DNA of 64,000 nucleotides from Amphiscolops sp. MND2022. Taxonomy: Eukaryota. Both the position numbers and the translations under genes were made by a program. Every line of letters starts with the position of its first letter. Position 1 is the stretch's first letter. The stretch lies in the NCBI GenBank assembly GCA_964187785.1, contig OZ076409.1, forward strand, positions 69,566,001-69,630,000. Direction: 5' to 3'. The notes under the pieces were generated by a model. That model was not told where the DNA came from and did no database searches. It saw nothing but the letters and a program-made list of their open reading frames with translations. Positions 3,950-26,352 of the stretch are shown here, in pieces.

Positions 3950-4074
3950 TTTGGTCCGCCGACCCGGACAACTCGTTGGTGGACGACCCGGACTAGAAGA
4001 AGACGACTCGTTGGTGGACAACTGGGAAGATTGCCCAAGAAGAACAAGTGTCTGGATCTTGGAGTTGCTGATTT

Positions 4075-4266: not shown

Positions 4267-4305
4267 TGTGACTTTGGGAACTGAGTTCAACCAAGAGGAG
4301 AAGAG

Positions 4306-7300
4306 ATGGCAGAACCAAAACGGTTCGATATCAACAAAATCGAAAACTTTCTGAAGAACTCTGCTGACAAAGCCCAAACGTTGAGTTATTGGAATGCAGC
4401 TGTCGAACACGGTAAGACTGTTAAAGAAATTGATGAGAACCTAACTAGCAATGTTGACGACAAGCAGATAGCAGATTTACTGCTAAGACGAACAGATGCC
4501 ATAAACCGGAGGGATCGGCTCATTAAGGCAGTCGAAAATGCGATCAAAGTCAAGTATCAACCGCAGATACCCGAAATCTTCTCAACAGTGAACAAAGAAA
4601 TGCAGAGCCGATTGGCTGAGTTGCAGCAGCAAAGCTCTAGCGTTGGAAGGGTACAAATGCTGATGTCAGCATTGCAAGACGAAAATCAGATACTAAATTA
4701 CTTGGATCTTGACGAAAAGAAACGTGCTATTGATAGACTAATGGATAGCAACAAAAAGTTGCGGGAAGATTCAATCGCAAATGGCAAAATTGTCGACGAA
4801 AAAGATTATGCTGCAGCATGTCAAGAATTGCTGCAGAAACGGTCTGACATTAAAACGAAAATTGAAGATCTGCTGAAGACAGGAGAAGGAGGAGCCATTT
4901 TGCGAAGTCTTGAAGACGCTGAACAAAGACTAGCAGACGTTCGCGCAAGCGTAGCCGCAGACAAATCAAGTAAAAATGGCACTTCACCACAAAAGGAGCC
5001 GCAACCAGACGATGAGCAAAAGGAACATGATGGTCACAACGCGGAAGACAGCCAAGAGCCAAGAAATGGAGCTAGATCATTGCCAATAGAAGAATTGAGC
5101 ATACATTCGCGAAGTGAAAGAGCCAAAAGCAACAAGACGTCTGTGATTTCAAAAACATCAAGCGCAAGACGAGTTCTACACTTGGAACTAAAAGCTCTGA
5201 AGGAGCAAGAAGAACTGCAATCCCGCCTGGAGAAACTGGGAACAGAAACAAAACAAAAGGAAATGGAAATAGCAGACTTGCAAGGTGAGGTGGCCCGCAA
5301 GGCCAGAATTGCAGAAAAGGAAATAGAACTGGCAAAATTTTCAAGTAGGTGTGGCACCAGCTTGCGAAGTATTTCACCAGTCGAGTCACCAGACGACAAT
5401 CTGACGAAAGTCTCAGATTGGATGGACAAGACCGAAGAAGCTGAAAACGTGGCATTGCCGATTAACGTGCCATCTGTATACCAGCAAACGTCCGTCTCAG
5501 CACCAGTGATTACAGTACAAACAACGCATGGAGGACAACGCTCCGCGATAGCGAGGGACTTGAAACCCTTAGTGAAACCGACCATATCCACAGAAGCCGC
5601 TGTGCGAGATATTGGAAAGGACAGAACAAAGACTGTCATAGATGTTGGCAGTCAAAGAGCAACAGCACAACCAGAAGTGAAATTCGCCACATCGAAGCCG
5701 CCAATGACCCTTATGGCAGGCCAAAGCTGGGTACCACCTACGAATGGAGGCAACCCGAGTAGTGCGTTTCAAGTACCACAGCTTGCGAACACGCAGAAGC
5801 AGTATATGCCAAGTCAAGGGCCGAACATAGTGTCAACTACGAGAGATGACTATTTCATCAGATCTAGTTTGCCAAAATTGAAGTTGGCAGACTTCTCAGG
5901 TGACCCATTGGAGTGGCCAGAGTGGTCACAACTATTCCAAGCAACCGTCCATGCAGCGAACATAGACGACAGTGTAAAAATGAACCACCTGAAAACAATG
6001 GTCACGGGCAAAGCGAAAGAGGCTATTGCTGGTCTTGGGTACACCGCGGAGATGTACAATGTGGCGTGGAACGTTCTAGTTCGAAACTTTGGAAAACCTC
6101 AAATGGTTGTGAATGCTCAACTAAAGAGAATTTACTCCTTTCCACAGATGAAACCTTATGATGGAGCCGCATTGATCAAGTTTGCGAGAATAGTGTCGAG
6201 TTGCGTGAATGTTTTGACACAATTCAACTACGTGGGAGACCTAAACTCAGAAGGAGTTCTGGGCAGCGCCACAAGGAAGTTAACACTGGACATGAAAACG
6301 AAGTGGCTCACTCATGTGAAGCAAATGAACCTGTATCAACCTGGACTCGCTGTGTTCAGTGAATGGCTCAATGATATAGCAGATGTTCAAGACGAATTGC
6401 TTTTGTCTTCAAACCCGAATGCTGATCGCGCGAAGTCGAACTACAAGGAAAAAGCCAAAGGCTCCACGTTTGCCACATCAACAACAAACACAGCCAGTGA
6501 GAACTCGAAATACCAGCGAGAGTGTGCGCTGAAAGATGGCAAACATCCAATATGGAAATGTGAGAAGTTCAAGAAGATGAACGTCGAAGAAAGAGGACAA
6601 AAGGCGAAAGAGTTGAAATTGTGCTTCAAATGTTTGTCAGACGCACATCAGATGAGAAATTGCTCTGGTAGACTATGTGACGTGAATGGTTGCGGAAAAC
6701 CCCATCACAGATTGCTACACAGACCATACGTGGTACAAAAGAAAAATGTTGAAAATGTCGATGAGGTCTCAAACCTGTCCTCAATGAGAAGCAGTGGAGT
6801 GCTTCCAGTCATTCCAGTTTCGATAGGGAGTGGGAGCAAAACTGTGAAAACGTTCGCTTTGTGCGACTCTGGAGCAAGCCTGTCCTTTGTGGACGAGAGC
6901 CTGATGAAAGCGCTAAATCTGATGGGACAGCCAGTGGATTTGAATGTTGCAGGGATTCATGGTGCGTCAGATATTAGTAGCAAACGACTAAGGGTAAGGA
7001 TTGGCGATCAACAAGGAAAAGTCAAAGAAGATATCATGGCCTATAGTCATCCCGACGTAAATGCAGGAAATCGAACGTACAACCTCAAGAAATTGAAGGA
7101 AGAATATCCACACCTGTCAGTGCTGAAAGATTCTACCATCAACCTGAAAGATGTAAAAGTCATCTTGGGACAAGATTGTTACCACTTGCATAGAGCCATT
7201 GGGTATAGAAAATGTGGAAAGTCAAAACCTTGGGCCGTTTTGACGAAGTTGGGATGGATGCTCAGTGGACCCTTGCCTCAACAAGAAACTGCGAAGTTCG

Positions 7301-8658
7301 CCACTGAAAGTTTGGTTTTTGCAGATGTGGATCCATTGGTGGATCAGATGAAAACTCGGTCGAGGATGGAATTGTATACTTCCCACTGCAGCGTATCCGA
7401 AATGTCCAAGGAAAATACGGAGAACTCACCAGACATTTTCGTTGTAGAAAGAAACTGGCAAGAAGTCAGTACTAAACCCCTCCTCTTGGAAATCAAGCAA
7501 ACTTGGAAAGACGAAATGCACCTAGCTGTGAGTGACCATATGACAGTCGAACAAGACAAAAACATGGGTTTCTCAACTGTAGAAGAAAAGAACGAACATG
7601 AAAGTTTTGCAATTAAATCAAACCTCCGAACCTTGGAAGAATTTACTGTGATGCTTGAATTGGTGAAACAGAATACAGCTGTCGCCTCTGTACGACAGCA
7701 TGTCGAAGAAAAGCAACAAACTCAAATGCAAGCCGTGAAGTTCGCTGCCAAGACTTTAACACTTGAAGAGGGAAAAAAGTGTTCTCAATTGAACAAAGTG
7801 GTTGAAGTCGTAAAAGAGTGTCAACTTGAACTTCATGAAGTTCCACGAGGCAAAGCGATATATCGAAGACCCTTTGGTGGTTTGTTGGAACAAAACAAAC
7901 CGGCTGAAGAGAACGCAAGTAATGAAACAAAATCCGTAAAGGTGTTATTTGGTAGAAAACATGACGTTGGCTTGAATGAAAAACTGCTGGACAAAATTAT
8001 TCCAAACGACAGTGAAAATTGTAACAACTGGTTAGGTAATGGAAATTCGGGAATGGATGCAGTGGCACAAGCTAACCCTAACGTGTACACTCAACTGAGC
8101 ACTGGCCACAGCAAGCAATTCGAGAAACGAGCTTGGAAGTTTGAACCTATCTCAATTCGATTTCATGGAAGGAACGAAAGCGCTCAGTTGAATACAACTG
8201 GCATCCTACATGCAAATATGAAGGCAGATGATTTTACAAGCGAAATATCCCTGATAGAGACGCGAATGGGTTCTTCAAAAGCCCGAACAGCAACAAGTTG
8301 TAAAATTGAGCCTTGCATAGGGCCGGCCGCATCGTGGGAAGTGATGATGCGACAAGAATCTTTTGGAAAATGGATTGAAGAAGAATTTAGACAACTTGAA
8401 GTCAATGATTTGGTTTGGATAGTGGACGAGAATGTAAAAAGAGCACACTACAAGATGGGTAGAGTGTTGGACGTCTATCATGGAAGCGATGGGCGAGTGA
8501 GATCAGCGCTGGTGAAAACTGAAGATGGAAAACTGAAACGACCAGCAGTGAAACTGGCACCCATGTTCTACGAAAGTGTTTTTCAGGAGAAAAACAGGGC
8601 CGGCAATGTTGGCGCCAGTCAATTGCGAGATCAGAAACTCAAACTCGAACGTGACTGA
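4306..8658 (+). CDS. BEL/Pao gag-protease polyprotein with C-terminal DUF5641-like domain; lacks RT, RNase H and integrase core
   Basis: Intact 1450-aa ORF. Motifs: LPKLKLADFSGDPLEW (DUF1759-type gag), three Cys/His knuckles, ALCDSGAS protease, PWAVLTKLGWMLSGP, and GRVLDVYHGSDGRVRSALVKT. No YxDD is present. Confidence 0.92.
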   Translation: MAEPKRFDINKIENFLKNSADKAQTLSYWNAAVEHGKTVKEIDENLTSNVDDKQIADLLLRRTDAINRRDRLIKAVENAIKVKYQPQIPEIFSTVNKEMQSRLAELQQQSSSVGRVQMLMSALQDENQILNYLDLDEKKRAIDRLMDSNKKLREDSIANGKIVDEKDYAAACQELLQKRSDIKTKIEDLLKTGEGGAILRSLEDAEQRLADVRASVAADKSSKNGTSPQKEPQPDDEQKEHDGHNAEDSQEPRNGARSLPIEELSIHSRSERAKSNKTSVISKTSSARRVLHLELKALKEQEELQSRLEKLGTETKQKEMEIADLQGEVARKARIAEKEIELAKFSSRCGTSLRSISPVESPDDNLTKVSDWMDKTEEAENVALPINVPSVYQQTSVSAPVITVQTTHGGQRSAIARDLKPLVKPTISTEAAVRDIGKDRTKTVIDVGSQRATAQPEVKFATSKPPMTLMAGQSWVPPTNGGNPSSAFQVPQLANTQKQYMPSQGPNIVSTTRDDYFIRSSLPKLKLADFSGDPLEWPEWSQLFQATVHAANIDDSVKMNHLKTMVTGKAKEAIAGLGYTAEMYNVAWNVLVRNFGKPQMVVNAQLKRIYSFPQMKPYDGAALIKFARIVSSCVNVLTQFNYVGDLNSEGVLGSATRKLTLDMKTKWLTHVKQMNLYQPGLAVFSEWLNDIADVQDELLLSSNPNADRAKSNYKEKAKGSTFATSTTNTASENSKYQRECALKDGKHPIWKCEKFKKMNVEERGQKAKELKLCFKCLSDAHQMRNCSGRLCDVNGCGKPHHRLLHRPYVVQKKNVENVDEVSNLSSMRSSGVLPVIPVSIGSGSKTVKTFALCDSGASLSFVDESLMKALNLMGQPVDLNVAGIHGASDISSKRLRVRIGDQQGKVKEDIMAYSHPDVNAGNRTYNLKKLKEEYPHLSVLKDSTINLKDVKVILGQDCYHLHRAIGYRKCGKSKPWAVLTKLGWMLSGPLPQQETAKFATESLVFADVDPLVDQMKTRSRMELYTSHCSVSEMSKENTENSPDIFVVERNWQEVSTKPLLLEIKQTWKDEMHLAVSDHMTVEQDKNMGFSTVEEKNEHESFAIKSNLRTLEEFTVMLELVKQNTAVASVRQHVEEKQQTQMQAVKFAAKTLTLEEGKKCSQLNKVVEVVKECQLELHEVPRGKAIYRRPFGGLLEQNKPAEENASNETKSVKVLFGRKHDVGLNEKLLDKIIPNDSENCNNWLGNGNSGMDAVAQANPNVYTQLSTGHSKQFEKRAWKFEPISIRFHGRNESAQLNTTGILHANMKADDFTSEISLIETRMGSSKARTATSCKIEPCIGPAASWEVMMRQESFGKWIEEEFRQLEVNDLVWIVDENVKRAHYKMGRVLDVYHGSDGRVRSALVKTEDGKLKRPAVKLAPMFYESVFQEKNRAGNVGASQLRDQKLKLERD

Positions 8659-9559
8659 TGAAACTTATAACTCAAAACACTTAGAAACTTTATCAAGATT
8701 TAAGTTGGAAAAATACAAGTCTTAGCAAAAATGACCCTATGTAAAAAAGGGCCACCCCCCCCCGTCCCGGTAAACCACTCATTCAATCACCTTGAAACTT
8801 GGCACACGTATAGTAGTGGTGCTACGCTAACTTTTCACTCGAAACACCGAACCCCGTATCTTCTCTGGGTTCCGAGCAATTAACACCCAAAGTGACCTAG
8901 GTCGGACCCCATGAATTACCCAATTTTGATGTATTAATTATTAGGTTATTTTCTCATATGACCTTGAAGGAAATGTAACTCTGATGAAATTAATGATATT
9001 TACATTATGTAAACATACTTTCTAACCCACCTAACCAACATGCCAAAACCACCACATTCTTTGTTTACTTAGTCAATAACTTCATTTTATGCTTTAAATG
9101 TCATTTATTTACACAACATATTTCAACTGATATTTGCTTATATTTACTGTAGAATTGTAAACCATATGTATACCATTATTAGATAGAGATTTTCTCCACT
9201 GTATAGCTATAGTCAAGTTGGGTCTTAGGACCAAGAGACTAATTAATCAACTTCTCAATCTTCACAACTTTTCGCTAGAGTCAGAGCGACTAAGTAGCTA
9301 CTCTCATAGTCCGAGAGCGGAGCGCGTGAAGATACAGTGAGGGAAGTGTGTGCAGGATCACATCGGATCCAAATCAGTGCAAAGAGGAATCGCTGGAGAT
9401 TCCTACGGGTCACATCGGACCCATCAGCTAAAAGATACAGTCCTTTAAAACACGAAAACCAGGAATTGTTTAGTGACGGTCCACAGCACTAAGCAACGGA
9501 TCAGGGCGGCGTAAAGCTTGTCAAGCCTCAGCGCAGGATAAGGGCAAGCAGCCGTTACA
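8607..9559 (+). repeat. BEL 3' LTR (953 bp)
   Basis: Near-identical to 2999-3949 and followed by the TSD. Confidence 0.97.
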
Positions 9560-9564
9560 GCGGG

Positions 9565-9917
9565 AAATGCGACTCAACGGCCTTGGAGCGCCAGATGAAG
9601 TGACTCTGGTACCACTCAATAAAATAGAACCAGCTCAAACAAAACAAGAGACAAAACAATTCGAGAACACAACACAGAACACCAAAAAAAGATACTGCTT
9701 CTAATGCAATAAATTTGACCACTTCAAAGCAGAATGTCGAAAACTGAGAAGGGATAAATGGCAACAGACATGGAAGAACAACGGCCAAACTAAAAACAAC
9801 GCAGGCACCACACTTAAATGTGATCCGAGACTCAAACGACACTTCCAAAGAGAAAAGAACATGAAAACTTCCACCCAACAATCGACAATCAGTTTCGGAA
9901 ACGAATCAAAAAATTAG
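9565..9917 (+). pseudogene. gag: Gypsy gag, 3' part with a degenerate CCHC knuckle
   Basis: EMRLNGLGAPDEV... and YCF*CNKFDHFKAEC; ends ESKN*. Confidence 0.75.
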
Positions 9918-9963
9918 TTACGCCGCGCCTGCGTTTTTGGGAAATCGTAGACGCGAGGGCGTA
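9908..9963 (+). promoter_or_regulatory. Putative -1 ribosomal frameshift signal between gag and pol
   Basis: A-AAA-AAT in the apparent gag phase just before TAG, followed by a stem-loop (TACGCC/GGCGTA; GCGCCTGCG/CGTAGACGC). Confidence 0.6.
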
Positions 9964-10329
9964 TTCACCAAAAGATCCCCCTACTACAGATGACTCAACA
10001 ATAGAGTGCGTCGGCACTCCAACAGAGGACTGGTTGAGACAACAAGCACTCGCCTCAATAAGAAGAGCAGTTCCACAACCAGAAAGGGAGGAAACCTACA
10101 CTCAAGACAAGACTACAGAGATGACCATACACGTAATGCAAACCCCATCGTACAACTTCCTTGCCCCACTAAAGAACAAACAGCTACAACCCAAATAGAC
10201 CAAAATGGAAATGTCACCGACGACCACCCACCGCTACAACGAACGAAGAAGATACCCACGGCCCCACAAGGTCATCTATCTTACACGACGATTTCCCCAC
10301 CTCACTTAATTCGATCAAAGAGTATATAA

Positions 10330-13300
10330 CCGAAAAAGATGGGGATACCTACATACCCCTGCACTCGACTATAGTCCTCAAGAACAGAAGACGAATGCTG
10401 TCTTTGCCAGCGAGTTCGGCGAAATAACCATGGACGGCCTAGTTGACTCAGGAGCGTTCATCAACGCCATGTCATGGTCAGACTACAACGCCATTAAAAT
10501 GAACAGTGACAATTGCATTATAAAAGAATACCCACAACCTCCTTTCAAGATCGAATGCGCAAACGCCCAACTAGAACAACCTATTGCCACTGCTGACATT
10601 CAATTCAATATCGGAACATACACGTTCACCGACACCTTTGTCATCCTATCAAAGACGTCATTCCCCATAATTGGACTGAATTTCATGAGAAACCACCAAG
10701 CAGTGATAGATACAGCTAACGGGAGCATCACCTTCCCACATGTCGAAATGACATTAGCCATGACAGACGAAAAGAAAAACTGTAACCCCATACCGCTCCA
10801 AATCATTACCGAAGGGAATCAGACGCTGCCACCACAAGAAACAACAACAGTAAATGCAATAGTCATAACCACCAATGCAACCGTCATCATAGGCGCAGTA
10901 CAACCGCTACCACAGTTTGATGAAACAGCCACCATCATCGTTGCACCAGCACTGGCCACAGCTCATAACAAACGAATAAACCTCCGAATAGCCAACTTGA
11001 CAGATTTCCTTCACACCATAAAAAACCATACCAAATTAGCAGAACTGCAAATCCTTAAACCAGAGGACACAGAACAGATACGACCCATAGACGTTGCAAC
11101 ACTAACCACCCTACAAGACCCAGATGACACGCACATGAAATCCACAAATAACGAACAAAACGACGAAAACCTCTGGTTCCCAACACCCGAAAACCCGGGA
11201 AATGAAGATGAACACACGCCAATACAAAGGCAAATATTATAAGAAATCAGAGAACTTATAAAGAAAGAACAACTCGATCCCACCAATGATCCAGAATCAA
11301 GGAAAGAGTTCCTCGACATGTTCAAATGGGAAAGATCGCAGATTCAGGGAAATGACAGAAAACAGCTTGAGCAAACGGTAGTTGAAAACAACGACATTTT
11401 TGCGCGTCACAGACTTGACGTTGGCATCAACAACAGCTTCAAAGTGAAACTAACGCCAAAAGATGAACGCCCCATATATACACAAAGTTTACCAGTACCA
11501 ATCAACCTGAAAGAAGACCTAACAGACGAACTAGCGCTCATGCATAGACATGTCATAATCACGACATTACTGTTTTCAAGTTATGTCAGCCCGACTTTCG
11601 CACAACGTAAATCAAATGGTAAACTGCGTCTACTTGTCGACCTACGAAAAATCAACGCACTGATATCTGACAACTTCATCAACAAGAATCATCCAGTCAG
11701 CACCCTGTCAGACGCAGCCCAACACCTAGCTGGAAAAAACTGTTCTGTAAATTAGATTGCTCCCAGGCATATCATTGCCTACAAATGGCGGATCAAAGAT
11801 CCATTGAAATGCTAGCATTCAATTTTGCAAGCAGAACCTTTGCATACAAACGACTGGAACAAGGACTGAGCAGAGCTTTGTCAGCGTTTTCAAGCTTCAT
11901 GAGGGAGTACTTGGTTAAAGTTATTAAAGCTGACCAGTATGCGCAATATGTGGACAATATTGGAATAGCTGCCAACTCCGTGACGCAACTGATACGAAAC
12001 ATTCGAGCTGTTTTTGAATGCATCAGACAAGCAGGACTTAAACTGTCCATTGACAAATGCCATTTTGGAATGACCGAGGTCGAATTCCTAGGAAGAACGA
12101 TCACCCCACAAGGAATTGCCCCCCAAGGCCACAAAATCCAGAAATTCTTAGCAAACGTACGATTCCCGAAATCAAAGAAGCAAGTACAAAGATACATAGG
12201 CTTTGTCAACTACTACCGCTACTATATCCCGCGGTTGTCAAAAATGTTACTCGGTTTCTACGAACTACTGAAAGCAGACAAACAGATCAAAGTCACAGAG
12301 GAATTGCTAGATAGCTACAAAGCGATCAACGCAGCGCTAGCGGAGGCATGTGGATTGGCTCTCAAACAACCAATCACAGGACGACAATACGTCCTAATGA
12401 CGGATGCTAGTTTTCGCGCTTCAGGATATGCTTTAATGACCGAAGAAGAAAACGACAAAAAACTGAATTCCAAAAAGAAATTTTTTGCGCCTGTAGCATT
12501 TGGATCAAAAGTATTTTCACCAGCGCAACTGAAGATGTCAGTTTATTGCAAAGAATTTCTGGCAATCTACCACGCGTTTTTAGAATACAGCCACATATTG
12601 TGGGAAACAACCCTACCAACTCTTTTAATGACTGACAACAGATCAGGAACGAGGTTTTTCAAACAAAAGCGACTCCCCCCACACTATGGAATGCATGCGA
12701 CTACGTACTACAGTTCAATTTTCACATCATGCACGTAGCAGGGACGCAAAACACCGCTGCTGATTTCTTTTCGAGAATTGACCTTAACCCTGAAGAAAAA
12801 GTTGAACTAAAAATCCGAAACGATATTACGATCCAACCAATACAAGTGAACCTACAATCGACAGACGTCGCAGATGAGGAGCAACTCTTTTTTCTCCTTT
12901 GAAACAGAAGAGGAGATCCTCCTACAGAAAGAACAAGCAAAACAAAATGCACGAGATGAGGAGACGACAAAAATAAAGCTGTCCATCAAAGAAACAACCC
13001 CAATTCCAATAAACAAGGCATCATACACCTTTGGGGCAATCAAAGAAGATGCACGCATTAGAGTTGAACAAGACTCAGATTTGATTTTCAAAGCAATCAA
13101 GAGAAAATTGATCTGCGAAGAATATGACAAACACCTACTACAAACAGATCCGAAAACCAAACGCCTCTTTGACACGAAAATAGACTAATAGTCAAAGACG
13201 GAATCCTAATGCGAAAATACTATGGGGAATGAGGACAAGTCACGCATCATCAAATATTAATCCCCGAACACCTAATCACAGAACTACTGAAAGCCATTCA

Positions 13301-13680
13301 CGGACAAATGGGAAAACATCCAGGAATCACCAAAATGATCCAAGAATGCAGATCGAAATATTACTACCCTGGCTTGGCAAAGAGGATCAAACAATGGGTA
13401 ATGCAATGCGAAGACTGCATCAAACACAAAAGAATCAACAACAGCCATATCCGACCGAAAATGATCAACAATACAGAACACGTATTGGGACCAGAAGACT
13501 TACTCGAAATCGACATACTGCCAAACCTACTGCAGGATACCAGAACATTGTCATAATGATCGACGTGTTCTCGCGTTACCTATTCGCATACCCAACGCAG
13601 AATGCCACGGCGAAGACAATTGGACGATGCATTGTCGATGTCATGACAAGACACGCATATTTGCCAACATTAATCTTATC
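10330..13680 (+). pseudogene. pol: Gypsy pol: protease, RT, RNase H, integrase N-terminal part; several frameshifts and stops
   Basis: LVDSGA; LRLLVDLRKIN; YVDNI (YVDD mutated); MTDASF..GYAL; H-x5-H...CEDC zinc motif; IDVFSRYLFAYP. Confidence 0.92.
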
Positions 13681-16600
13681 TCCATCGCCAAGCGTAAGTT
13701 AGAGGAGCGCTACAACAACATGCGATCAATCGTGAAGGCGCACTTGGCGGCAATTCATGCCCTACCAGTCATCAAGAAGGAGTCAAGTGTCGAGCTGCGC
13801 AAGTTACTGGAGTCGACCAATGAACATGTGCAAGCACTAGAAGCCTTAGGGCTTCCTGTTGATCAATGGGATGCAATACTTGTGTACTGGCTGCTTGAGA
13901 AACTTGATAATGAGTCGAGAAAGCAATTTGAATTGGCTCATCCTGGCATAGATGTGTTAACATTCAAGGAGTTAAAATATTCATGGATAGACGAAGCCGT
14001 GCATTGGAATCAAGCGGCGACCAGAATGAAGCTTCCGTCCCCAAGACGACGCCTAAGAAGGTGCTTCAAGAAGCATATTCCTCAACTGTTGAGCACTCAG
14101 CAAGCTGTCAGATGAAAGAATGCAATGGGTTTCACTCAATTTCTCAGTGTGATCGCTATGTTGAGCAGTTGGGCACATGTGAGAGAAAGGCAGTGGTGAG
14201 GAAGCTCAAACTGTGCATGAACTGTCTGGGGCGGCATTTCGTGGCTGACTGTCCATCCAAGTTCAGCTGCCGCACTTGCAACGGGAGGCATCACACATCG
14301 CTGCACTTTATCGTGCAGTCGAGCAGCAAAGTGGTGTGACAAGTGGTGCAACGTTCAGTGGTCCATCTGTGCTTCTCTCAGCAGCAATGGTTGGCATAGA
14401 CGACAAAGCTGGAAAGACATTGAAGTTCCGAGCCCTGCTGGACTCTGGGTCTCAAACATCCTTCATCACAGCGGATGCAGCATCGAAACTCAACATCGCC
14501 TGTTCAACAGTTGATGTGAAGATCTCAGGGATTGGTGGACGGCAACAAGCAGCAAAGGAGTCAGTCAATCTCGTGATTGGTCCTCAAAAACTGCCGGTAA
14601 CAGCACTAGTGCTGAACTCAATTGCAGGTAATATACCCTCTCAATCCATTAATTTGAAACAAATGAAATCAATGAAAAGTGTAGCATTAGCTGACGAAAA
14701 CTTCCATCAACCTGGCCCCGTTCAATTATTGGTGGGCGCGGATGTATACGAGGATCTCTTTCTGGACGAAAGGAGGAAGGCTCATGGGCTTCACTATCGC
14801 AAGTCTATCTTCGGCTGAGTGGTCACTGGAGTGCTGTCCCAAGTGCGTACCTACCAATGTCGATCATTCCAAGTTGCAGTGTAACTGGATCTTGCTCGCT
14901 TCTGGGAAAATGAAGAGATTCCTCGAGTGAAGCCAATGTCCAAAGAAAATTGTCAATGTGTGGAGCATTACGACACAACAACCTATGTTGCTGATGATGG
15001 CCGCATCACTGTTCGTCTGCCTTTCAAGTCTGAAGCACGTCCCTCAAACAATTTTCACACAGCAAAGCAGAGATTGTTCCATGGAGAGAAAACTCAAGGA
15101 TCACGGTGATGTGAAGCAGCAGTACCGTGACTTCATCAAGGAGTTTGTAGACATGGGTCACTTGGAAGAAGCTCCTCAGACTTCAGGCTTGCGTTACTAC
15201 TTATCCCATCACTGTGTTTTCAAGGATAGCACAACGACCAAGCTCCGTGTCGTGTTCGATGCCAGGAGCAAATCCCCGAATGGCAACTCGCTAAACGATT
15301 GCCTATTGCTTGGACCCCGTTTGCAGGACGATGTGTTTGATATTTTTATCCGCTTTCGCCTACACCAATATGCCTTGTCGGCAGATGTATCAAAGATTTA
15401 TCGACAAGTGGGTGTAGACAAATCAGACCGTGACTTCCATCGAATTCGGTGGCGTGACCTTGTGACAGATGAGATCCGAGAACTGCGTATGACCCGTGTG
15501 ACGTACGGTGTTGCCAGCTCCTCCTACCTTTCAACCTGAGCACTTCAAGAGAGTGGCAAAAATCATGGACCCAATCCGAACACAGTGAATGTGATTCTCA
15601 ACGATTTCTGGGTTGATGATTTACTGAGTGGGGCTGATACACTGATAGAAGCATGCGTGCTTCAAGACAATCTGATTGAAACCCTCAACAAGAACTGTCT
15701 CCAACTACGCAAGTGGAGCAGCAACGAACCCCAACTCGTCACTCGCCTTTCGAAAGACCTTCAGGAAGCTGGCAAGGCTTACGAAATCAACGATAAAACC
15801 CATCAAATCAAAACACTGGGACTGACGTGGCATCCTCTAGAGGATCACTTTGTGTACGCAAGTAGTAGTGAGTATATTTCAATCATTACAAAACGAACAC
15901 TACTCAGTGATGTTTCAAAGCATTTCGATCCAATTGGCCTCATAGCCCCAGTTCTCGTAGTAGCCAAGGTCATCGTTCAGTCCTGCTGGAAGCTGGATCT
16001 TGAGTGGAATGATGCAGTCCCAGATGATGTGTCACGGGCATACATAAACTGGAAAGATGACATGAGCTCACTATCACAACTCAAGATACCCCGGAAGGTG
16101 CTGCCAACCCACTTGTATGACGCAGCATCCTTACAAGTCTTCTGTGATGCCTCGGAAAAAGCATACGGTGCCTTTGTTTATCTGGTGTCAGTCAAAGATG
16201 ACATCGTCTCTTCAACCCTCATCTCCTCCAAATGCAAGGTGGCTCCAATCAAACCCTCAACTCTCCCTCGACTCTCGAACTCTTGGCAGTTCACACGGGT
16301 GCCAAACTTGCAACAGCAGTCAAGGGGGCACTATCAAAATCAAAGCACGCATTGAACATCTCTGTGCTGTACTCAGACTCAACAATCGCCCTCTCATGGA
16401 TCAAGGCAGACCCTGCTCGATGGCATACGTTTGTGTCAAACCGCGTGTCCCAAATTCAGTCAATGCTCCCATTAACTGAATTCATTCACGTACCCTCAGA
16501 GGAAAACCCAGCAGATCTGTGCTCACGCGGACTGCTAGCAACGCAATTGGTGGCTCAGCAGACGTTCTGGTTTCAAGGGCCATCGTGGTTGGGATCATCA

Positions 16601-17539
16601 TTTCCTGACCAACCTCAGACTCTCCTCACAAAGGAGGAGGTCCGCCAAGAAATCAAAACATTGACAGTGTTAACTTCGCCCAGTAATTCGTTAGTAGACT
16701 TGGAGAATTTCAACTCTTGGAGTGTTTTGTGTGTGAAGAGAATAAAAGAAGCCAGCAAATATTTTGAATTTTTCAACAGCCACACACCCAACTCAACTGG
16801 AGCCAGCTACACACCCAACTCCAATACCCAATCCAACTCAATCCCTTTATACGTGATGATGGTACAGTGGTAAATTCAATAACCCCTTATCAGAAGTCTG
16901 GAGTTCGAATCCCCGAATAACAAAAATTTTATTTTGTCCCCTTTGAACTGAAACTCTGGTAATTTCCAATTTGTATTACGTGTGCTAACCATATATTTAA
17001 TAAAGCTGACACTTCATGGCCGGCGGGATGTTGGCGCACGACATTAGAATAGTATCGTATAATTATCAATCCACTTAGCACAGTGGATGAGTGTTTGCTT
17101 CCGAGCCAGTCTGACCGGGTTCGAATCTGCAACAGTGCTATCTTTTGTTGCTATTTTTGTTTATTCATTCTTAACCTCTGATATATCAATCATATCAGTT
17201 GACATTTGTAATGTTGCTCATTTATGTTTGCGTACATGAACAAATGTAAACAGTCTGAATAGACCTTTTTTTGCCCTTTGGCTGTAAATTCATCGTTTGA
17301 TAGTCAACAACTTAAAAACCCAGTCATGAAATTTTCCTCCTTTGCATCATTATTATACTTTCATATCGTTACTGAACTCTTCAATAAACGTTATCAGTTT
17401 AGTCTTCTTGTTTGAGAAAAGCAAAGGCTTGAACTCTATCTTAAGTTCCCTCCATCTCAATAGTTTGAATTCTATCTTTGAGTTCCTTCAATTATTCTAG
17501 TTCGAACCCTGTCTTGAGTTCCTCCGTCTTAGCTTGAGA
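13681..17539 (+). mobile_element. Truncated BEL/Pao fragment of a second family: gag end, PR, RT, RH, no integrase, PPT and partial 3' LTR from 17029
   Basis: RALLDSGSQTSFI; HHCVFKDSTTTKLRVVFDA; TYGVASS; FWVDDLL; FCDASEKAYGA; ENPADLCSRG; GGCCGGCGGGA|TGTTGGCGC at 17018-17037. Confidence 0.9.
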
Positions 17540-18668
17540 TTACCTATTCGCATACCCAACGCAGAATGCCACGGCGAAGCCAATTGGACGATGCATTGTC
17601 GACGTCATGACAAGACATGCATACCTACCAATATTAATACTATCAGACAAAGGCTTACAATTCCGATCAGAAGTTGTCGCAGAGATAACGCACATACTCG
17701 AAATCCAAATCAGCCACGCGTCAACAAAACATGCACAAACGATTGGAATTTTGGAAAGGACACACGCTTCAATCAAAACTGCACTAAAATATCGACGGGG
17801 GAAAGACGTTCAATGTGGCACAAATATGTCCAAATTGCAGTCATGAACTACAACACAACGTACCATGAAACCCTAGGTTGTGAACCATCCACAGTATTTC
17901 ATGGACGCATACCCTACAACGTTCTAGACCTGAAGTTAGGCATCAAGCCAAAATGGAAAACTACACCTAACTCAGATCTAGGGGAGCAACTACAAAAACA
18001 AATAGACGAAGTGAGAGCGACAGCAAAGGACAATATCATGTTGTCTTACCTCAAATACAAAAAATTTTACGACCGCAAAGCGTCAGCAGCTCCGCTCAAA
18101 GTAAACGTCTACTGCTACATTCTCAAACCGAAAGCTGACAATCAATCAACAAAGTTTGCGTTCCAAGATTGCATCTGGACAGGACCGTACATAGTGATCA
18201 AAGTGCTCTCAAACAATAACTACACAATAAGGAAAACTGGCACGAGACATAAGCAAACACTACACAGAATCCGCATACGACCTTACGTACCAGAACAACG
18301 TGTGCCTGACGTCACGGTACGAGCAAACGAATATTTTCCTGATCCATATTTCTAGGTGTCCCACAATGAATGGTACGCGGTATCATGGGAAATGGATTTT
18401 AGAAAACAATTGACGAACACGAGTCAAAGACATGAATGACGCAACGCCATCGTCACCGGATTTTTCGAATCTTACTACAGACGTGGGGGATAACCCATAC
18501 ATACGACGCCCCTCACCCATTGAAAGTCCACCTATTCCCCCAAGATCACAGCCTACAACTGTCGGATATAACCCGAGGAAACCGGCAAAGTATAACTTGA
18601 GGCCTAACCCTAAATCTAATGCTAATCCTGACTTCAGACGACTCGACGCTCTGACTACGACTCACTAG
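17540..18668 (+). pseudogene. pol: Gypsy integrase core and C-terminus (frameshifted)
   Basis: ILSDKG.QFRS; HAQTIGILERTH; YNTTYHETLG; WTGPYIV (GPY/F motif); YNLRPNP tail. Confidence 0.9.
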
Positions 18669-18908: not shown

Positions 18909-21900
18909 TTATCGGTGCCTCTCTTCGTGCGCCGCACAGAACTCCTGCCTTTTACTAGAGCACGAACCAGATTGTTCTCCGGCATCATCAGCAACTTTGG
19001 ATCCACTCACGACAGGCAGGGTACTACCTCTCTTTACACCAAGGTAAGAAGCCAATGAAGTCTGCAACTCCCTACGACTCTTTTTCGTCGAACTGACTAC
19101 CCTTACGGTACTCCGCACAGGAGAAGCAACAGCTGAACCAGCCCCAGACACAACAGAACCGCCGGAACGCATGTCTCGCGGACGTTCTGGAACACTGCGA
19201 AGACGAGTCTCAGCATTTTTCTTCTTTTGAGCCAGATGAGCAGCGAATAGGTCACTGTAACGACCAACGAAAGCAGAACGATCTTTCTGCGCAATTTCCG
19301 CCCAAAGATCGAAATCAGTGGATTCCATAAAGTCCTGAGCTTTCATAACTGACTGCCGGACCGCATCCATCGTAGCAACGGTAAAAAAGGAGCCTTGCTT
19401 GAAAGTAGGCATACGGACATAGCTCTGAACACATTTGATGGCCGAATTCAATACCACAGCAGGAACACTACAGTCTGAAAGATCAATATCAATCGAGGGT
19501 AACCGCATTGGATTCTTTAGCACGACCAAGCTGCATAATTGCAAAACACGGACAAGATTGTGGCGAGACAGGAATCCATAATCCGACAAAAGATACGTAA
19601 CAACGTCGTTTATTGCCGAAGCAGACCGCTCTGACTCTTCATGACGGAAGCGTGCCTCCACAACAAATGCAGCAAACTCGTCAATACTGGCATTGACCGC
19701 ATCTCGCGACAAACAACCAACTTTCTCCAATACGCGCAGCAGTTTACCAAAGAGTCCAAATATGTAACGGTCATCTCCTTCATGAAGCATCTCAGGGCAA
19801 AAGCAATAAATACTCTGGTAGAAGTTGCCAGTCACTAGATGCAACGATAAAATTGCGTCCACGAGGTGATTCATAAAGTCAAGGCAACGACTGCGGACGT
19901 CTCGCACCTCTCCAGTATTGGCTCTTCTCAAAGCATCTCCGAAAGGATGATTGGCCAAAAAATCCTTGACATATATCTTGCCCAGAACAGCCACCTTGGA
20001 CGAGTCCATGTAAGCATCCCAATCGGACAGCACAGGCATATCGGCAACTCGTCGTGTCTGTGTCAGCAGGCAGTATACAAATTCACTTAGTTCGCCGTAA
20101 CTGTGAAAGCCATAATCGGTACGGCCTGAGAGTTGCTTCTTGAAGACGCGGTGATCTGGAAACACACAAACCATAAAAACCCAAATCACCCAAAACTACG
20201 CGATTAGTTTACCACAACGACAACTAACAGAGATCCAGAATGTGCAGCAGCAATCCCAGCAACAAATCAGTGGTATTACTTGAGCACACAAACCAGTCAA
20301 TGCTCTGCATCTGAAACAAAACAAAAAAACAGTGACAATAAAAAGGACACGAAGAGAAACCCCTTGCCTTTTCTCTATCTATCAACCCATTTTAACAACA
20401 AAAAAAACAAGGGAAAAAAAGAGGAACAAATCATACCCTATACAAAGAACTAAACGGGACGGACGTACCCTCTCTGCAGCGCTTTTGATATGGTGAGAGC
20501 CAGTATGACGCACGTACTCCCGCACGAAAGTCCAGACAGAAAGCAACTCGGACACGACATCTCGAAAGCCAACAAACTTGACAGATCCAACGACAATAGC
20601 ACGTCGCAAGGCTGGCACTTCTTCCAACCAGGGCTCCTGCAAAGCCCCCTTCAACCGCAACAAGAGGAAATCGACCATGGACGTCGTCTCAAAGGCACTG
20701 AACACCTCCTGATGACTTTGACGAAAACATCGCAAAAATACATCAGCAGAAAATTCGCGACAGAAAGCAAACTGTCGACCATCGTCCCGGTTGTCAATAA
20801 GAACACGTAGCAGAGTGGGACTACCGCCCCGAATACTCAGAGGCAAATGAGAACCGGGAATGACGCTCACTAATAGAGACAAAGCAGCAAATTCGACGTC
20901 AGGAACACGTTGTCCAGCGGGCTTAGCATGTACACACACCTCCAACGGAGTGTGTTTCTCCCACGTTCTCACTACACAGATCTGCTTATCATCCACCTCC
21001 TCGAAAGTCACACTGTACTCACCAAAGGTGACAAAGCGAGCACTCAGAGCCCGGAGAACTCGTGGGAACAAGGCATGGCAAACCAGCGACTACAACAAAA
21101 CAACAAAGCCTGCAGTCAAATCAACAACCCAAAATCACAGGACAGGGCAAACAATAAATATGGTTACAAAGTCGAACAACAGAAATCCACGTACCAATGA
21201 CTCACAGCGACTCCACATCATATTATACAGGGGGTCCTCAGACTAGAGAGTGGCACGGAAGCAACCCCAGAGACGTCGCAGAAACACGTTGCTCCCGCCC
21301 CAGCGGAGAAGTTCCAGGAGACAGTTCACCGTAGTCATCAGAGGAACATTTGAACCCACCCGGGTACAAGAAGGCAAAAGGTCCTCAGGGAAGGGGAAAC
21401 CTTCAGCCCGACCACGACAAGGCCGCGAAGAGTATTCCGCTTTCTGCTCGGCACTCAACGTCAGAGGATCACGCATCCGCCCATAGACTGGAAGTCCGTT
21501 GTGCACTCTGTAAGTCACATCGGCCTCCCAATGTTTGGGAGTCCCAAAGAAGTGGCGATCGAACTCTCCAGCCCCCCTCGCCGCATGAAAACATCGCGAT
21601 GACAGATGGTGCAATAGAAGGCCCATGGGAAGCCAGTGCTGGACCCACTTACAAACAAACTGTACACTGGGTCGTCTCTGACCATACTACGTCGTAATCG
21701 GGTACGGGCACTATACTGCTTTGGCTTGTCACGAGAGCCAGTCAACCCCTCCAGACTTTTCTCCATTCAAGTCATAAGCTCTTGAAACCCTAAAACAACA
21801 CGGCCAAATCTCGAACAGCATATGCATACCTTCCCAATACCAATAAAAGAAAATATTACGTACTGGACAACAGAGGCTCCACTGTCCTGTCCTCAACCTC

Positions 21901-22837
21901 AGTAGCAACGATAACGCCCAGAACAGCAGTTTGCTGAGGTGTGAAGGGCGCCACTGACTCTACACTCGAATCGTCATCGGTACCTACGAAACCAACACGT
22001 GATGAAGAAATGATAACACAAGTCAGCAATATCAAAACACCATCAAAACAGTTTATTACTATCAGATCGAGGCTGTTGATGACGCGTTTGCGACGCAGCA
22101 GGACTACGACGATAACGCTTCGAACGTTGTTTCCCTGAATCTGCAACTGGTGCAACTAGAACAATTTAATGATACAACCACACATCAATAAAAGTCCATC
22201 ACGAAAAACTAGAATCACAAAGCGCCAAACCTCGCTTCTGACTGGACTTCTCGTCTGGACGTCAAAGATTGAACTGATAACAGGCAACCAAGTTGACGCA
22301 CCAGCTTCAAGGTAACGTCCTCCGCAAAAGTGACGGCGGCCGTACGGGAAGAAGCAGCTACTCCACCAGCAGTCGTAAAGTTGGCCGCAGCGTCTGCGAG
22401 AAGTGGTCCAGAGGGATCAGCAACCAAACTTTGCAAAGGCACATCAAGCCCATCGTCTTCGGAAGAAGAAGGCCCTTTTCCTTGGGAATCAGGCGGTACA
22501 GGCACAGAAACAGAAGAGATCGGAACGACTACAGGAGAACTTCCATCAGGAGGAGGGACAGCAGCAACAGCAGCAGAAATTTGCCCTAGTACAAACACTA
22601 TTCCAATATCGACGCGTCAAGAAAACATAAGCTGTAGAAATGCAAATATGGGAAAGGCCTGCTCATATAATGTGTCATCTACAAAAGCTTAATGGGGAAC
22701 CGAAAAATGTACTCACTAGCTGTAGCACGACGAGCGTCATCAGCGTCACTGTGACGCATGCCCCCCTCAGAGAAGACAAATTGAGTCTCGTTTCCGCTCA
22801 CTAAACCCGAGTCAATAAAGCCTCGGGAGTGAGACAT
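18909..22837 (-). pseudogene. Antisense 8-exon cargo gene (~1060 codons): low-complexity N-terminus, C2H2/BED-like zinc finger, hAT-transposase-like body; damaged in this copy
   Basis: Predicted exons: 22837-22717, 22585-22302, 22155-22060, 21983-21864, 21789-21195, 21089-20469, 20310-20213, 20155-18909. All introns are GT..AG, 57-158 nt, with T-rich acceptors. Contains FYCTICHRDV...RHFFGTPKHW. Confidence 0.72.
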
Positions 22838-22888
22838 TGCGAGCAGCTCGGAATCTGAAAACAAACAGGGTGAAAACAACAACCAAAT

Positions 22889-23145
22889 TGACGTCATCAT
22901 AACGGTGACAAAACAGAAGTTGGCTGATAACCAACGAAATTGACGTCGGCATAACGTCGGCAAAAAGGTTATCAGTGTTGAAAATTTAATCCTATAATCT
23001 ACAATGACGTCTCCATAACGGTGACAAACTTAGAAGCTAGTTAAAAGTTAGCGAAATTGACGTCAGCATAACGTTGACAATCTTGTTTAAGTGAATTATT
23101 TCAATTTACAGCCAATAAAAACGCGATGTCGACATAGCGGTAACA
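22889..23145. promoter_or_regulatory. Array of five 22-bp motifs (TGACGTCnnCATAACGnTGACA) between the divergent cargo genes
   Basis: Copies start at 22889, 22941, 23005, 23058 and 23124; the last is degenerate. Regulatory role is inferred. Confidence 0.7.
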
Positions 23146-23300
23146 CCCGGGATTAAAAGGATAAAAATGATTGATGATCATCTAATCAAAATAGAAGGAT
23201 TTATCCCGATATTCGCCTTAATCTTAATTAATCCGAAATTCATTGTGGAACAATTAAATACGAACGACAGTTGCAAAAGGAAAGCAGTCCCATAAAGAAG

Positions 23301-24002
23301 ATGAATAATCTACTAGACGTATACGAGCTGATCGACATCTCATCGTCAAGCGAGGAGGAAGGCGAGATCACAAGAGCTTCTGCCCCGCTACCTAGGGACC
23401 GCAAAGAAAATCCCAGAATAGTTGTCGAGATACTAAACTCGTCGGCGGAAGCTACTGCAGATGAGGAAGAAATTCTCGACCTTTCTCTAAACTCCCTGGA
23501 AACTGAATGCAAAAGAATGAAACTTAGCAAATCTTACACGAGCTTCGAAACAGTAGAATCGGGACAATACCCGCATTCGAAAAGTTCCGAGGAATTAGCT
23601 GACTCCCCAGAAAGCCCGGACGAGAGCTTGTCCTCTGATATATTCGTTGTAGAAGCTTCAGCAAACAGTGAAGAGTCGGTAGCAAGCAGTAAGGTAGCGG
23701 AATACCTCGAAAAGGTACGCCAGGAAGACTCTTCTACTTATTTCAACACGCCACTGGGAACACCCAGGAAAATCACCTTCACACCCGCAAGCCCCCTGAA
23801 TGACTTGGAGAAGGGAATCTATACAGCCGCTACTACTCCGACCATCGCCTCACAACTCAGAGCCCCAGGTAGCGTCATTCTTCTTACGAGAGCGGCCCTG
23901 TCACAACCCGCTCCCGGTCTGGCCTGTGGTTGCAGACGATTAAAAATCGGAAGAGGACATGGAGGTAGTTTAAGATTCCCAAAATCCTATTTTAACTGGT
24001 AA
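23301..24002 (+). CDS. Acidic, Ser-rich accessory protein (233 aa from ATG 23301) with SIM-like motifs; its 3' end lies inside the terminal repeat
   Basis: Open frame containing ELIDISSSSEEE, IVVEILNSS, EEILDLS and DIFVVE, with C-terminal KIGRGHGG. The same C-terminal coding sequence is at window positions 1-53. Confidence 0.65.
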   Translation: MNNLLDVYELIDISSSSEEEGEITRASAPLPRDRKENPRIVVEILNSSAEATADEEEILDLSLNSLETECKRMKLSKSYTSFETVESGQYPHSKSSEELADSPESPDESLSSDIFVVEASANSEESVASSKVAEYLEKVRQEDSSTYFNTPLGTPRKITFTPASPLNDLEKGIYTAATTPTIASQLRAPGSVILLTRAALSQPAPGLACGCRRLKIGRGHGGSLRFPKSYFNW

Positions 24003-26352
24003 CTCTAAAACTAACTTGAGATAAACTGTGACTAAAAGTGAAAAGATACGTCTACTCTATACAAGTCTCAATTGAAAATGAAAATAGGGAAATAGTTTAG
24101 CCAAAATGACTTTTACGCATTTCCGGTAAGACGCTTCAGCCACGTCAAATTAGTAACATTCGCCACCTGAAAACTAAATTAGGACACGTTTTAAAACAAA
24201 GAAAGCATAAGCCAATCTAAACGAAAACATATCCAAAATCATCTCCAAAAGGAACATCAATCAGATCTAAAATAGAAAATACATTGAGATGGCACGCCGA
24301 AGAAACTAAGCTTTTCTGAGAAAGGCAGTTTAATTACTCTTTGAACAGCAATTAGTGTAGTTTAGGACGTCAATATTGCGTTGTGCAAACAAAGCGGCGG
24401 AGGAAATAAGAATACATGTCGCTAGTAAGACGCAGACAAGTTTGGAGGTATACCAATTGACGCCACTGCCTCGCCTATACGTGCTAGAAAATCATTCCGA
24501 TTATCCGTCTATATTAATAACTTTTCTAGAACTCATTCCAATTTACCGCCGATATGACGTCACAAACTTGGCAGCTAGAGAGAATATACTCTAAAATCTT
24601 GGTCAATACTACGTCAACGCTACGCCAGCTAGCTAGTACCTGTTCTAAAATCTTGGTCAATGCTACGTCAACGCTACGCCAGCTAGCTAGTACTTGTTCT
24701 GAAATCTTGGTCAATACTACGTCAACGCTACGCTAGCTAGATAGTATCTGTTCTAAAATCTTGGTCAATACTACGTCAACACTACGTCAGTTAGACAGAA
24801 TATGTTCTAAAATCTTGAAGTAACATGTCACGAACTAACCAGGATAACCGTTTTAGCTCATCCAAAACGTTGGAAGGTATAAGGTTTAATAACTTTAACA
24901 AAGAAGTGCCAATTAAGTTATACTTAGCAAATAAGATGAAGACAAAAGATTTTGAGTTGTGATATACTGTCGTTGTCGTAACGTCGACTAAAAAGTTGTT
25001 CACCTAAAACTACAATAAGAAGCGATTTATAAGTGCGTTCCCCGGTATTCTTTGGACATAAGAGTCACAGTTTATATTCATGACTGGAGCGCATTGACAT
25101 TATTTTGTACAAGAAATGTATTTTTTAATGGTTGCATCTTTATATCTAACTTGTGTTTGTAGTCACATTTCTTGCGTTAATTTTCCGTTAAAACTGTCAT
25201 CAGTAAACCTGTTTTGGGATTATTATTATACAATCACTAATTGTGTTGGTGTGTTCACTAAAAGATATAATTTTGACGTAATTGTCACGTCAGACTTGTA
25301 GGATGTCAAACTATTGATCTATACATATATGCTTGTGATAGTTAAACTTTGTATTTAATTTGATATTCATCATCTCCAATCTGTCCGAATATTCTCTTAG
25401 CATCGCTCAAATAATCATAACTTGGAAATTAGTCATCAAATTTGATCAAGTCGAATTCCCAGATCAAGCATTAGTTGTTCACGTCAGCGTCATCTCAGCG
25501 TCAATTTCCCGAAAACCCAAGCAGTAAAACAGGGAATCATTTCCGGTTTGACAGACTGAAGTAATATCTACTTGCTGTTTGGGAGGAAACAAAAGGACGC
25601 CGGGATGAAATAAAATGCTCGTGATAGATGACCAATAGAGGAAAACTATCGCCGTGTCTCAAAATTTGACGAAATGTCGACGTATATTTGGGATCTTGAT
25701 GATTTTTTCACTGAAAAAACAGGAAATGACTAATTGTTCGGAGGAATTTAGGAATATGTACGTGATCAAATGATGCTAGAAGGGTATATATATGATGTGT
25801 AATTTTGTTTAAGGGACTCAGTCCTTTTCAAGCTAAAAAACTCAGTTGTTCTCAACCTTTGCTTTAATCTTATTCCAATCTCAACTTTATTGAAAACCAG
25901 AAAGATAAAATTGAATTCTTTGGAAATCAAACTTTCTTCATCAACATGTCAACAACAAGAAGCCAAAAAGAGGAAAAACACTCAGCGAGATACTGAAGAC
26001 ATCGTAAGTGAAGGTTTCATTTCACCAATAAATATAGAGAACTCGCGTTCTTCAAATCAGGATATAGACGTAGCAGGTCCGTCAAGCCCGAAATCCCCTA
26101 CGATAGAAAATAGCTCTTTGGAGAGTTTGAGAGCTTCCTTGAAGGAAGAAAATGCTTCCGAGATCAAAACTCTCCTTCCAGAGTCTCAAAGAGAAACGTT
26201 GAAGCTTCTGAGATCTGAAACAGGAGAAAATGTAAGAAATAACACGGTAGATGAAACGGAAAAAGAAACAAGGAGTTTCCACACCCCAACGAAAATAGTA
26301 CGAATCAACTCTACTCAAAATAACGAGCCTGACACGAATGTAAGTCGTAACA
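23951..26352 (+). repeat. 3' LTR of the Gypsy element (true 5' boundary is at or before 23951 and undetermined)
   Basis: Matches 1-2368 and ends GTCGTAACA. Followed by unrelated flank GCATG rather than the PBS. Confidence 0.88.
24591..24816 (+). repeat. 54-bp tandem repeat (4 units plus a partial)
   Basis: Units at 24591, 24645, 24699, 24753 and 24807; one more than in the 5' copy. Confidence 0.95.

Follow-up and report, generated by a model that had tools for sequence, protein, structure and literature searches.

A 2019 review, in the text available of it, counted only three anti-silencing systems encoded by transposable elements (TEs), all of them from plants and none directed against piRNA or KRAB-ZFP silencing (PMC6719617). 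VANC, from the VANDAL elements of the Mutator group, is described in the sections available as an element-encoded accessory protein (PMC5735166, PMC6719617) that acts via dense, short, family-specific motifs, partly in tandem repeats (PMC5735166). Among retrotransposons with long terminal repeats (LTRs), the plant Tat/Retand, Grande and RIRE2 elements carry, according to the available parts of two reports, a conserved antisense open reading frame (ORF) between pol and the 3' LTR, with tandem repeats nearby and a proposed regulatory role (PMC7264820, PMC11963269), and a 2020 review gives, in the same available text, no TE origin for the antisense ORFs of LTR elements (PMC7264820). Here we describe a window of 64,000 nucleotides from Amphiscolops sp. 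MND2022 (assembly GCA_964187785.1, contig OZ076409.1, positions 69,566,001 to 69,630,000 of the forward strand) in which a Ty3/Gypsy retrotransposon carries a two-gene cassette behind pol (window positions 18909 to 24002). The cassette consists of an antisense, multi-intron gene, whose product is by structural modelling a derivative of a hAT transposase, and a sense ORF for an acidic protein.

Like VANC, the antisense gene is an accessory gene of its element and is accompanied by a dense, short, family-specific motif lying partly in tandem repeats, here in clades 1 and 2 of the three clades of the lineage. Unlike VANC, it sits in a class I element of an animal, its motif also occurs in coding DNA, and its LTR pair gives no signal of CpG decay. 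VANC is reported, in the available part of that study, to resemble MAIN (PMC13547354), whereas the cargo protein has a predicted hAT fold, so homology between the two is unlikely. In contrast to the plant antisense ORFs, as far as the available text on them goes, the cargo is a multi-intron gene with a traceable origin in another TE class (PMC7264820), and a second, sense ORF here enters the LTR. TRP28 (PF04195) of the Retand/Tat antisense ORFs gave no Pfam hit in the cassette. Host-domesticated hAT factors (ZBED1/DREF, ZBED6 and DAYSLEEPER) are transposases turned DNA-binding regulators, as the cargo protein may be, but the domesticating host here is a retrotransposon, with many diverged multi-copy families. 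Animal LTR elements with accessory genes include those bearing the antisense genes of human T-cell leukaemia virus (HTLV), the foamy viruses, in which tas/bel-2 is described in the available text as a transactivator with an internal promoter, located after the structural genes and before the 3' LTR (PMC7828637), and the giant Burro Gypsy elements of planarians, whose cargo is apoptosis- or ubiquitin-related and mostly within the polyprotein, with no hAT-derived gene mentioned in the portion available (PMC6431247). The literature that we searched, which excluded Repbase, most subscription journals and supplementary element catalogues that could hold one, contained, as judged from search listings, no LTR element with a hAT-derived gene. 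The present locus differs in that the origin of the antisense ORF can be traced and the host that domesticated the transposase is itself a transposon.

The element in the window is a full-length Ty3/Gypsy LTR retrotransposon, as judged by its LTRs, target site duplication (TSD), primer-binding site and pol order. On the plus strand, the 5' LTR (1..2368, starting 52 nt upstream of the window, with TG...CA ends) is followed directly by a primer-binding site beginning TGG (2369..2386), a broken gag-pol with reverse transcriptase, RNase H and integrase (9560..18668; RVT_1, RT_RNaseH and Integrase_p58_C) and the 3' LTR (23899..26352). The LTRs, 2420 and 2454 nt long, are 91.8% identical and flanked on both sides by the 5-bp TSD GCATG; 65 transitions and 54 transversions separate them in 2397 sites compared (Kimura two-parameter distance 0.051). 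In this copy pol, which ends at 18668, is broken and holds two nested BEL/Pao-type inserts; in another locus (L109) the order RT_RNaseH, Integrase_H2C2, rve is intact.

We assembled 59 ten-kb loci, hand-picked from the match lists of the antisense gene to cover its divergence; own-genome searches had returned more than 100 scored matches each, as lower bounds, for the last antisense exon and the acidic ORF. In all 59 loci pol immediately preceded the antisense gene, and the pol C-terminus lay at most 1.5 kb from that gene in 44/44 short search loci, a set that shares some loci with the long one. Of the 59, 58 also contained the acidic ORF, the exception (L032) departing from the element layout at that point; loci L044 and L118 contained internal deletions. 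Across the 59 long and 44 short loci the antisense gene was never met away from pol, and no inverted repeat common to the cassette ends was found in the four regions scanned (4/4), TSDs having had no separate search. The cassette is a fixed part of the whole Gypsy lineage, situated between pol and the LTR. An earlier note on this DNA had assigned the acidic ORF to the element because it enters the LTR, and had proposed checking the position of the cassette in genome-wide copies; the cassette is not confined to this copy, nor did the four regions scanned show terminal inverted repeats (TIRs) of its own. The lineage comprises three clades (29, 18 and 12 loci), with clade-3 pol approximately 47% identical to that of clade 2. 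Integrase and cargo trees of 16 rows recovered the same three groups; clade 1 was weakly supported in the cargo tree (50/71), and the analysis carried a warning of long branches. Fourteen copies at 99–100% protein identity in one family indicate that the lineage, which is very abundant, was recently active. Since database homologues are only 47–53% (P0148), 37–45% (P0044) and 31–36% (P0178) identical to this genome, relatives exist outside this assembly.

The antisense gene occupies the minus strand behind the end of pol, and its organisation as a spliced zinc-finger gene, already recognised in the earlier note, was confirmed by exons with AG..GT ends. From its 5' end it contains a first coding exon (22717..22854, ATG at 22837) with an acceptor-like site ahead of it, low-complexity and variable upstream exon sequence with an open frame (22215..22586; one or more exons, with putative limits read by eye), a BED-type CCHH zinc-finger exon (21195..21789), a 621-nt exon for an RNase H-like core without conserved catalytic aspartates (20469..21089), an 82-nt micro-exon (20229..20310) and a last exon (18909..20155) for the helical insertion domain, the C-terminal region and a K/R/S-rich tail. 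The core and last exons are open; the finger exon of the window copy holds two in-frame stops and one frameshift, so this copy is dead. Splice sites, counted at loci where the anchor was found out of 48 spliced-clade loci scanned, were retained for the finger-exon donor GT (40/41), the core-exon acceptor and donor (36/37 and 25/25), the micro-exon AG..GT pair (11/13) and the last-exon acceptor AG (27/27), although the proteins are only 40–60% identical. In each of the 28 loci where the first coding exon was located, a splice-acceptor-like site also lay 13–39 nt upstream of its ATG. The three internal introns present in clades 1 and 2 are missing from clade 3 (L105–L116), which encodes finger and core as one frame of 870–910 codons; this confirms that the exons are collinear. 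The distant database homologues P0153, P0155 and P0178, which lie on long contigs and have no close match in this genome, have an apparent extra intron within the last exon, which suggests that the lineage is present in another genome.

Pfam returned no significant family for any cassette ORF, including zf-BED, and sequence searches of the PDB with the cassette proteins were blank. When 1.84 billion proteins were searched with a profile, 821 matched at E ≤ 0.001, among them a full-length homologue of 890 aa; no longer homologue turned up when the core exon was the query. A natural clade-3 frame, a single-ORF homologue, headed the 71-row alignment supplied to AlphaFold2, with the window exons linked to it by tblastn. 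The resulting model (pLDDT 82, pTM 0.71) returned Hermes transposase in all of the top 11 Foldseek rows, eight of them at E ≤ 0.001 (best E 3.3e-5), and VIA-align placed Hermes at Z 13.5 (root-mean-square deviation 5.1 over 402 aligned residues), with the next entry at Z 6.3. The cargo profile also matched a true hAT family of the same genome (L150–L165), which we had located by a motif and in which a repeat-like terminus and the catalytic motifs usual for hAT are present (E 1.3e-9 to 5e-7; 4/222 frames); it did not match any of 25 PF05699-type hAT loci (best E 0.37). By hhalign the two families were alike over the insertion domain (probability 81) and hardly over the N-terminal half (5.6). 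The cargo finger aligned with that of the true hAT L162. Its spacing in the window copy is C-x2-C-x16-H-x5-H, and the four zinc ligands are near-invariant across the alignment (63/63, 61/63, 62/63 and 63/63 rows). With hAT transposases, of which Hermes is the structural reference and the L150–L165 family the nearest in sequence, the cargo shares a BED-type finger, an RNase H-like core and a large helical insertion. These models and alignments identify the antisense protein as a hAT transposase derivative with a BED finger and a Hermes-type scaffold, a point that the earlier note had missed.

Three further queries added little: the last exon alone gave a poor model (pLDDT 50) and no clear fold match, the core exon drew helical-repeat matches of low recognition from an atlas search, and for the full homologue the atlas scored hAT-type families no higher than under 0.9, which we treat as no more than a lead. 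The tail of the antisense protein has an RVxF motif in a minority of cases (7/47), so this motif is not general. In the true hAT family, the left end (L158, L160–L163) bears subterminal direct repeats with a period of about 10–12 bp, the copies examined are internally deleted, and an acceptor-like site lies directly upstream of the ATG, as in the cargo gene.

Hermes requires D180, D248, R318, W319 and E572, according to the available text of one report (PMC6027215), and we examined the corresponding columns of the cargo. At the D180 column none of the 61 sequences with open frames had aspartate (E 24, R 19, Q 8); when broken copies were included, aspartate was present in 2 of 43 loci, both broken and near the subfamily of the window. 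Since automatic alignment (MAFFT, global hhalign) was unusable for D248 and E572, the D248 register was set from secondary structure and motif, at the position preceding the near-invariant Gly that closes predicted strand 4; this column had aspartate in 0/61 sequences and its neighbour in 3/61. Arginine was absent from the R318 column (0/60). The E572 region (668–675), of uncertain register, contained no invariant acidic column, the best having D or E in 46/69. In contrast, the tryptophan at the W319 position was kept in 60/60, and is thus invariant in the cargo as in hAT transposases. Unlike those enzymes, the cargo has no conserved DDE triad, no R318-position arginine and no TIRs in the regions scanned, and it is carried antisense inside an LTR retrotransposon. 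The protein is probably inactive as a nuclease, and by its sequence features the antisense gene is not a hAT transposon.

Both cassette genes are under purifying selection. Ratios of nonsynonymous to synonymous substitution (dN/dS) were calculated by the pairwise method of Nei and Gojobori on open frames only and pooled by dS bin, the pairs not being independent. They ranged over 0.12–0.22 for the finger exon (494/528 pairs saturated and dropped), 0.14–0.17 for the core exon (429/465), 0.10–0.32 for the last exon (697/741), 0.05–0.29 for the clade-3 single ORF (56/66) and 0.19–0.46 for the acidic ORF (384/435), as compared with 0.04–0.22 for integrase by the same method (582/820). The earlier note had suggested this check, a value near 1 counting against its reading; both genes lie far below 1.

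The acidic ORF (23301..24002, plus strand) encodes 233 aa rich in S, T and P, with 36 D/E and 49 S/T residues, and its last 104 nt lie in the 3' LTR, past the LTR start at 23899, as had been noticed earlier. In every clade the ORF reads into the LTR in one and the same frame, with an overlap of 80–132 nt. The window protein has an N-terminal SUMO-interaction motif (SIM) followed by an acidic run, together with RVxF- and KEN-like motifs. In 38 open copies compared with residue shuffles, where homologous copies inflate the counts, a SIM with acidic run occurred in 30 (0.95 versus 0.12 per protein), STP in 36 (1.05 versus 0.16), RVxF in 23 (0.92 versus 0.14), KEN in 13 (0.37 versus 0.04) and GRG in 28. 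The functional meanings attached to SIM, STP, RVxF and KEN are presumed ones. Plain SIM cores were near chance (3.05 versus 2.31 per protein), so the description "SIM-rich" in the earlier note overstated a protein with one strong SIM before an acidic/serine run, and the acidic protein may engage SUMO through this one conserved motif. Clade-3 acidic proteins are without the strong SIM pattern and are putative homologues of those of clades 1 and 2, with which they share position, an STP motif and the LTR-encoded end. As side observations, both LTR ends are coding: one holds the end of the acidic ORF, and the other the gag start codon with the first ~130 codons (about 1970–2368 and 25950–26352).

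The two ATGs of the cassette are separated by 463 bp, and within this gap lies an array of paired-CG motifs of the type TGACGTC-N4-TAACG (22889..23140; spacing 52–66 bp), with a CCAAT box near 23112. Strong motifs start at 22889, 22941, 23005 and 23058 (spacing 52, 64 and 53), and a fifth near 23124 is degenerate. The region of about 460 bp with phased motifs reported in the earlier note is thus real; of its five motifs only four are strong, the array is restricted to clade 1 (28/30 loci, 0 in clades 2 and 3), and it may sit in a 5' intron rather than between genes, since an acceptor-like site precedes the antisense ATG. The ACGT-N7-ACG core matched 28 times in the window against 4.3 expected, a number reached in 0 of 100 shuffles, and the strict array form had 2043 exact matches in the genome against 0 for a reversed control. 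Each unit of a 54-bp tandem array in the 3' LTR (24590..24817, plus strand, 4.2 copies) has one such core; the recurrence of the core in an LTR array had been stated before.

An unbiased scan of spaced trimer pairs traced the core proper to a pair of CG dinucleotides spaced by 11 bp (CG-11). In eight representatives per clade, CG-11 counts per 9.5 kb reached 63 for clade 1 and 78 for clade 2, versus about 20 at other distances; clade 3 had 20, and other DNA 15 versus 13. The count was at least twice background in 29/29 clade-1, 18/18 clade-2 and 0/12 clade-3 loci, with a 2–4-fold enrichment in clades 1 and 2. In the window, counts against background were 17/2 in the 5' LTR, 20/7 in gag-pol, 10/3 at the pol end, 28/13 in the cassette and 20/3 in the 3' LTR, with no excess in the nested BEL/Pao inserts (8/9 and 7/5), the first of which served as internal control, or in the flank (51/53). 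Sites were densest in the LTRs, at 5.1–5.7 per kb versus 0.2 outside. The signal extends to synonymous positions: integrase had 40 and 42 CG-11 pairs versus 18.7 ± 3.9 in synonymous-codon shuffles, and clade-2 cargo exons also exceeded such shuffles, those of clade 1 less so. Clades 1 and 2 have different bases flanking the half-sites. The absence of a peak at 22 or 33 led us to reject DNA-helix periodicity as an explanation of the CG signal. Clade 3 has peaks at 9 and 12 because of codon phase, and a weak, different dyad, TGG-N7-CCA (9.1 per 10 kb versus 1–3), which we take to resemble an NFI site. The CG-11 pattern is of the kind that a dimeric binder of fixed geometry would produce, be it a protein of the element or of the host.

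We propose that a hAT DNA transposon gene entered an ancestral Gypsy element in antisense orientation behind pol, and that it was retained after losing its cutting chemistry. Because the gene is antisense to the genomic RNA, its introns would outlast reverse transcription of the sense transcript, an established consequence of antisense orientation. In dimeric or oligomeric form, the protein would recognise paired half-sites centred on CG at a distance of 11 bp, or one helical turn; such pairs occur throughout the element and most densely in its LTRs and internal array. Binding would keep copies of the element open to transcription, whether through transactivation or through anti-silencing specific to the family, the latter on the model of VANC in VANDAL. 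From the internal CCAAT/CRE (cAMP response element) region the sense ORF, which ends in the 3' LTR, would be expressed as a cofactor in its own right, bearing motifs and probably disordered. What we infer here is that the genes are expressed and that the protein binds, with which oligomer geometry and in which direction it acts, and what the acidic protein does. Since the protein is hAT-derived and the motif core is both element-wide and clade-specific, the idea of self-binding gains indirect support, and with it a pro-expression role is favoured by the precedents: the BED fingers of hAT proteins are cooperative binders of short repeats (PMC10368747), VANC acts through its dense motifs, and ZBED1 keeps genes active by SUMOylating Mi2-alpha (PMC7471704), each as given in the available text of these sources. 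That an element protein binds the element's own sites, in whatever variant, we regard as probable. A pro-expression, VANC-like self-binding regulator made from a disarmed transposase is the leading single version, at somewhat under even odds in our judgement. The fullest form is held more tentatively still: an animal retrotransposon with its own anti-silencing or transactivation system from a domesticated DNA transposase, a self-tag maintained even at synonymous pol sites, tag and finger changing together between clades, and a SIM protein linking it to SUMO chromatin control. A path to an animal analogue of VANC is plausible.

Several observations weigh against this proposal. The clade-1 core exon has little motif excess (27 versus 22.5 ± 4.1). 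The clade-3 finger is equally conserved, yet the CG-11 signal is missing there, and the clade-1 finger exon varies (51–73% identity to the first row) while the motif stays unchanged. Between the two LTRs there is no sign of CpG decay (13/189 versus 52/722; CpG observed/expected about 1), which speaks against DNA methylation as the target and leaves VANC-type demethylation unsupported. The two cargo genes reassort between subfamilies (5 discordant pairs of 210; in L038 versus L047 the antisense exon is 59% and the acidic protein 97% identical), which is evidence against a tight one-to-one partnership, so that the pairing of the acidic ORF with the finger protein in the earlier note is not supported so far. 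Loci were picked through cargo matches, so the sample holds no pol-defined, cargo-less elements, and the copies are related by descent, so locus counts are not independent. Most dN/dS pairs were saturated and dropped, and only open frames entered.

The clade-1 array also holds canonical CRE sites, TGACGTCA being the canonical form, and single CRE-like sites occur in 27/30 clade-1, 16/18 clade-2 and 12/12 clade-3 loci. The sites may instead serve a host factor, a CREB/ATF-type basic leucine zipper protein or a SAND-domain reader of CpG pairs (DEAF1/GMEB), with the hAT-derived protein binding elsewhere or through protein contacts. Paired CCAAT boxes accompany the CRE-like sites ahead of the acidic ORF in clades 1 and 2, clade 3 retains the gene without the motif, and DEAF1 is reported, in the available text, to bind two CpGs 6–11 nt apart (PMC4274154). 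The spacing here is exactly 11 and that of DEAF1 variable, two clades living in one genome have different flanks, CREs do not account for many of the clade-2 sites, and the genome's other DNA, with host promoters outside the sample, has no peak; we consider a host factor less likely, though a serious rival and the strongest of the competitors. Even if the site belongs to one, a selected transposase inside a retrotransposon lineage is unusual. A self-binding repressor or copy-number brake sparing the host, like some domesticated ZBED factors, would fit the same anatomy and motif data, ZBED6 is described as a repressor, and self-control strategies of TEs have been discussed (PMC6719617, in the text available). 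Such a brake sits poorly with the abundance and recent activity of the lineage and with the resemblance of its dense family-specific motifs to the VANC pattern (PMC5735166, likewise), and we rate it a good deal less likely. At a slightly lower level stands a role after reverse transcription, in which the protein would coat cDNA through paired sites for nuclear entry, protection or integration tethering. The concentration of sites in the LTRs, their spread over the whole element, the K/R-rich tail and the nuclear function proposed for plant antisense ORFs (PMC7264820, in part) agree with it, while phased arrays in promoter-like regions point to transcriptional use. A passenger, meaning a functionless hAT insertion carried along inside the element or a unit with mobility of its own, is very improbable: true hAT relatives do exist in the genome and the window copy is broken, but the low dN/dS, the splice sites retained at 40–60% protein identity, the lack of a shared inverted repeat in the four regions scanned and the constant association with pol in the loci sampled largely refute it. 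A candidate protein and a candidate site are both defined, and family-specific regulators of animal retrotransposons thereby become a testable question.

Other features lie outside the cassette. The BEL/Pao element nested within gag (2999..9559, plus strand; DUF1759, DUF5641) has LTRs 99.8% identical and a single open frame of 1457 codons, and is very young; it contains a 24-bp tandem array at 4075–4279. BEL/Pao elements are known almost only from metazoans, in keeping with an animal host. The second, BEL/Pao-like insert in pol (about 13681–17539) was called by eye from translations and is flanked not by a short TSD but by a 105-bp duplication of pol (13576–13680 and 17540–17644; 91% identical), so it may be no simple insertion. 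A tandem duplication of about 2.56 kb (25742–30857; 98.2%) spans the 3' LTR end and its flank and shows a slight excess of CpG transitions (8/163 versus 17/742). Direct repeats at 43357–44134 and 50237–51239, 98% identical and about 6.9 kb apart, surround a 323-codon frame (47973–48944) and are probably another LTR element. AT skew is strongly negative at 37000–42000 and 61000–63000, which suggests remains of minus-strand retroelements.

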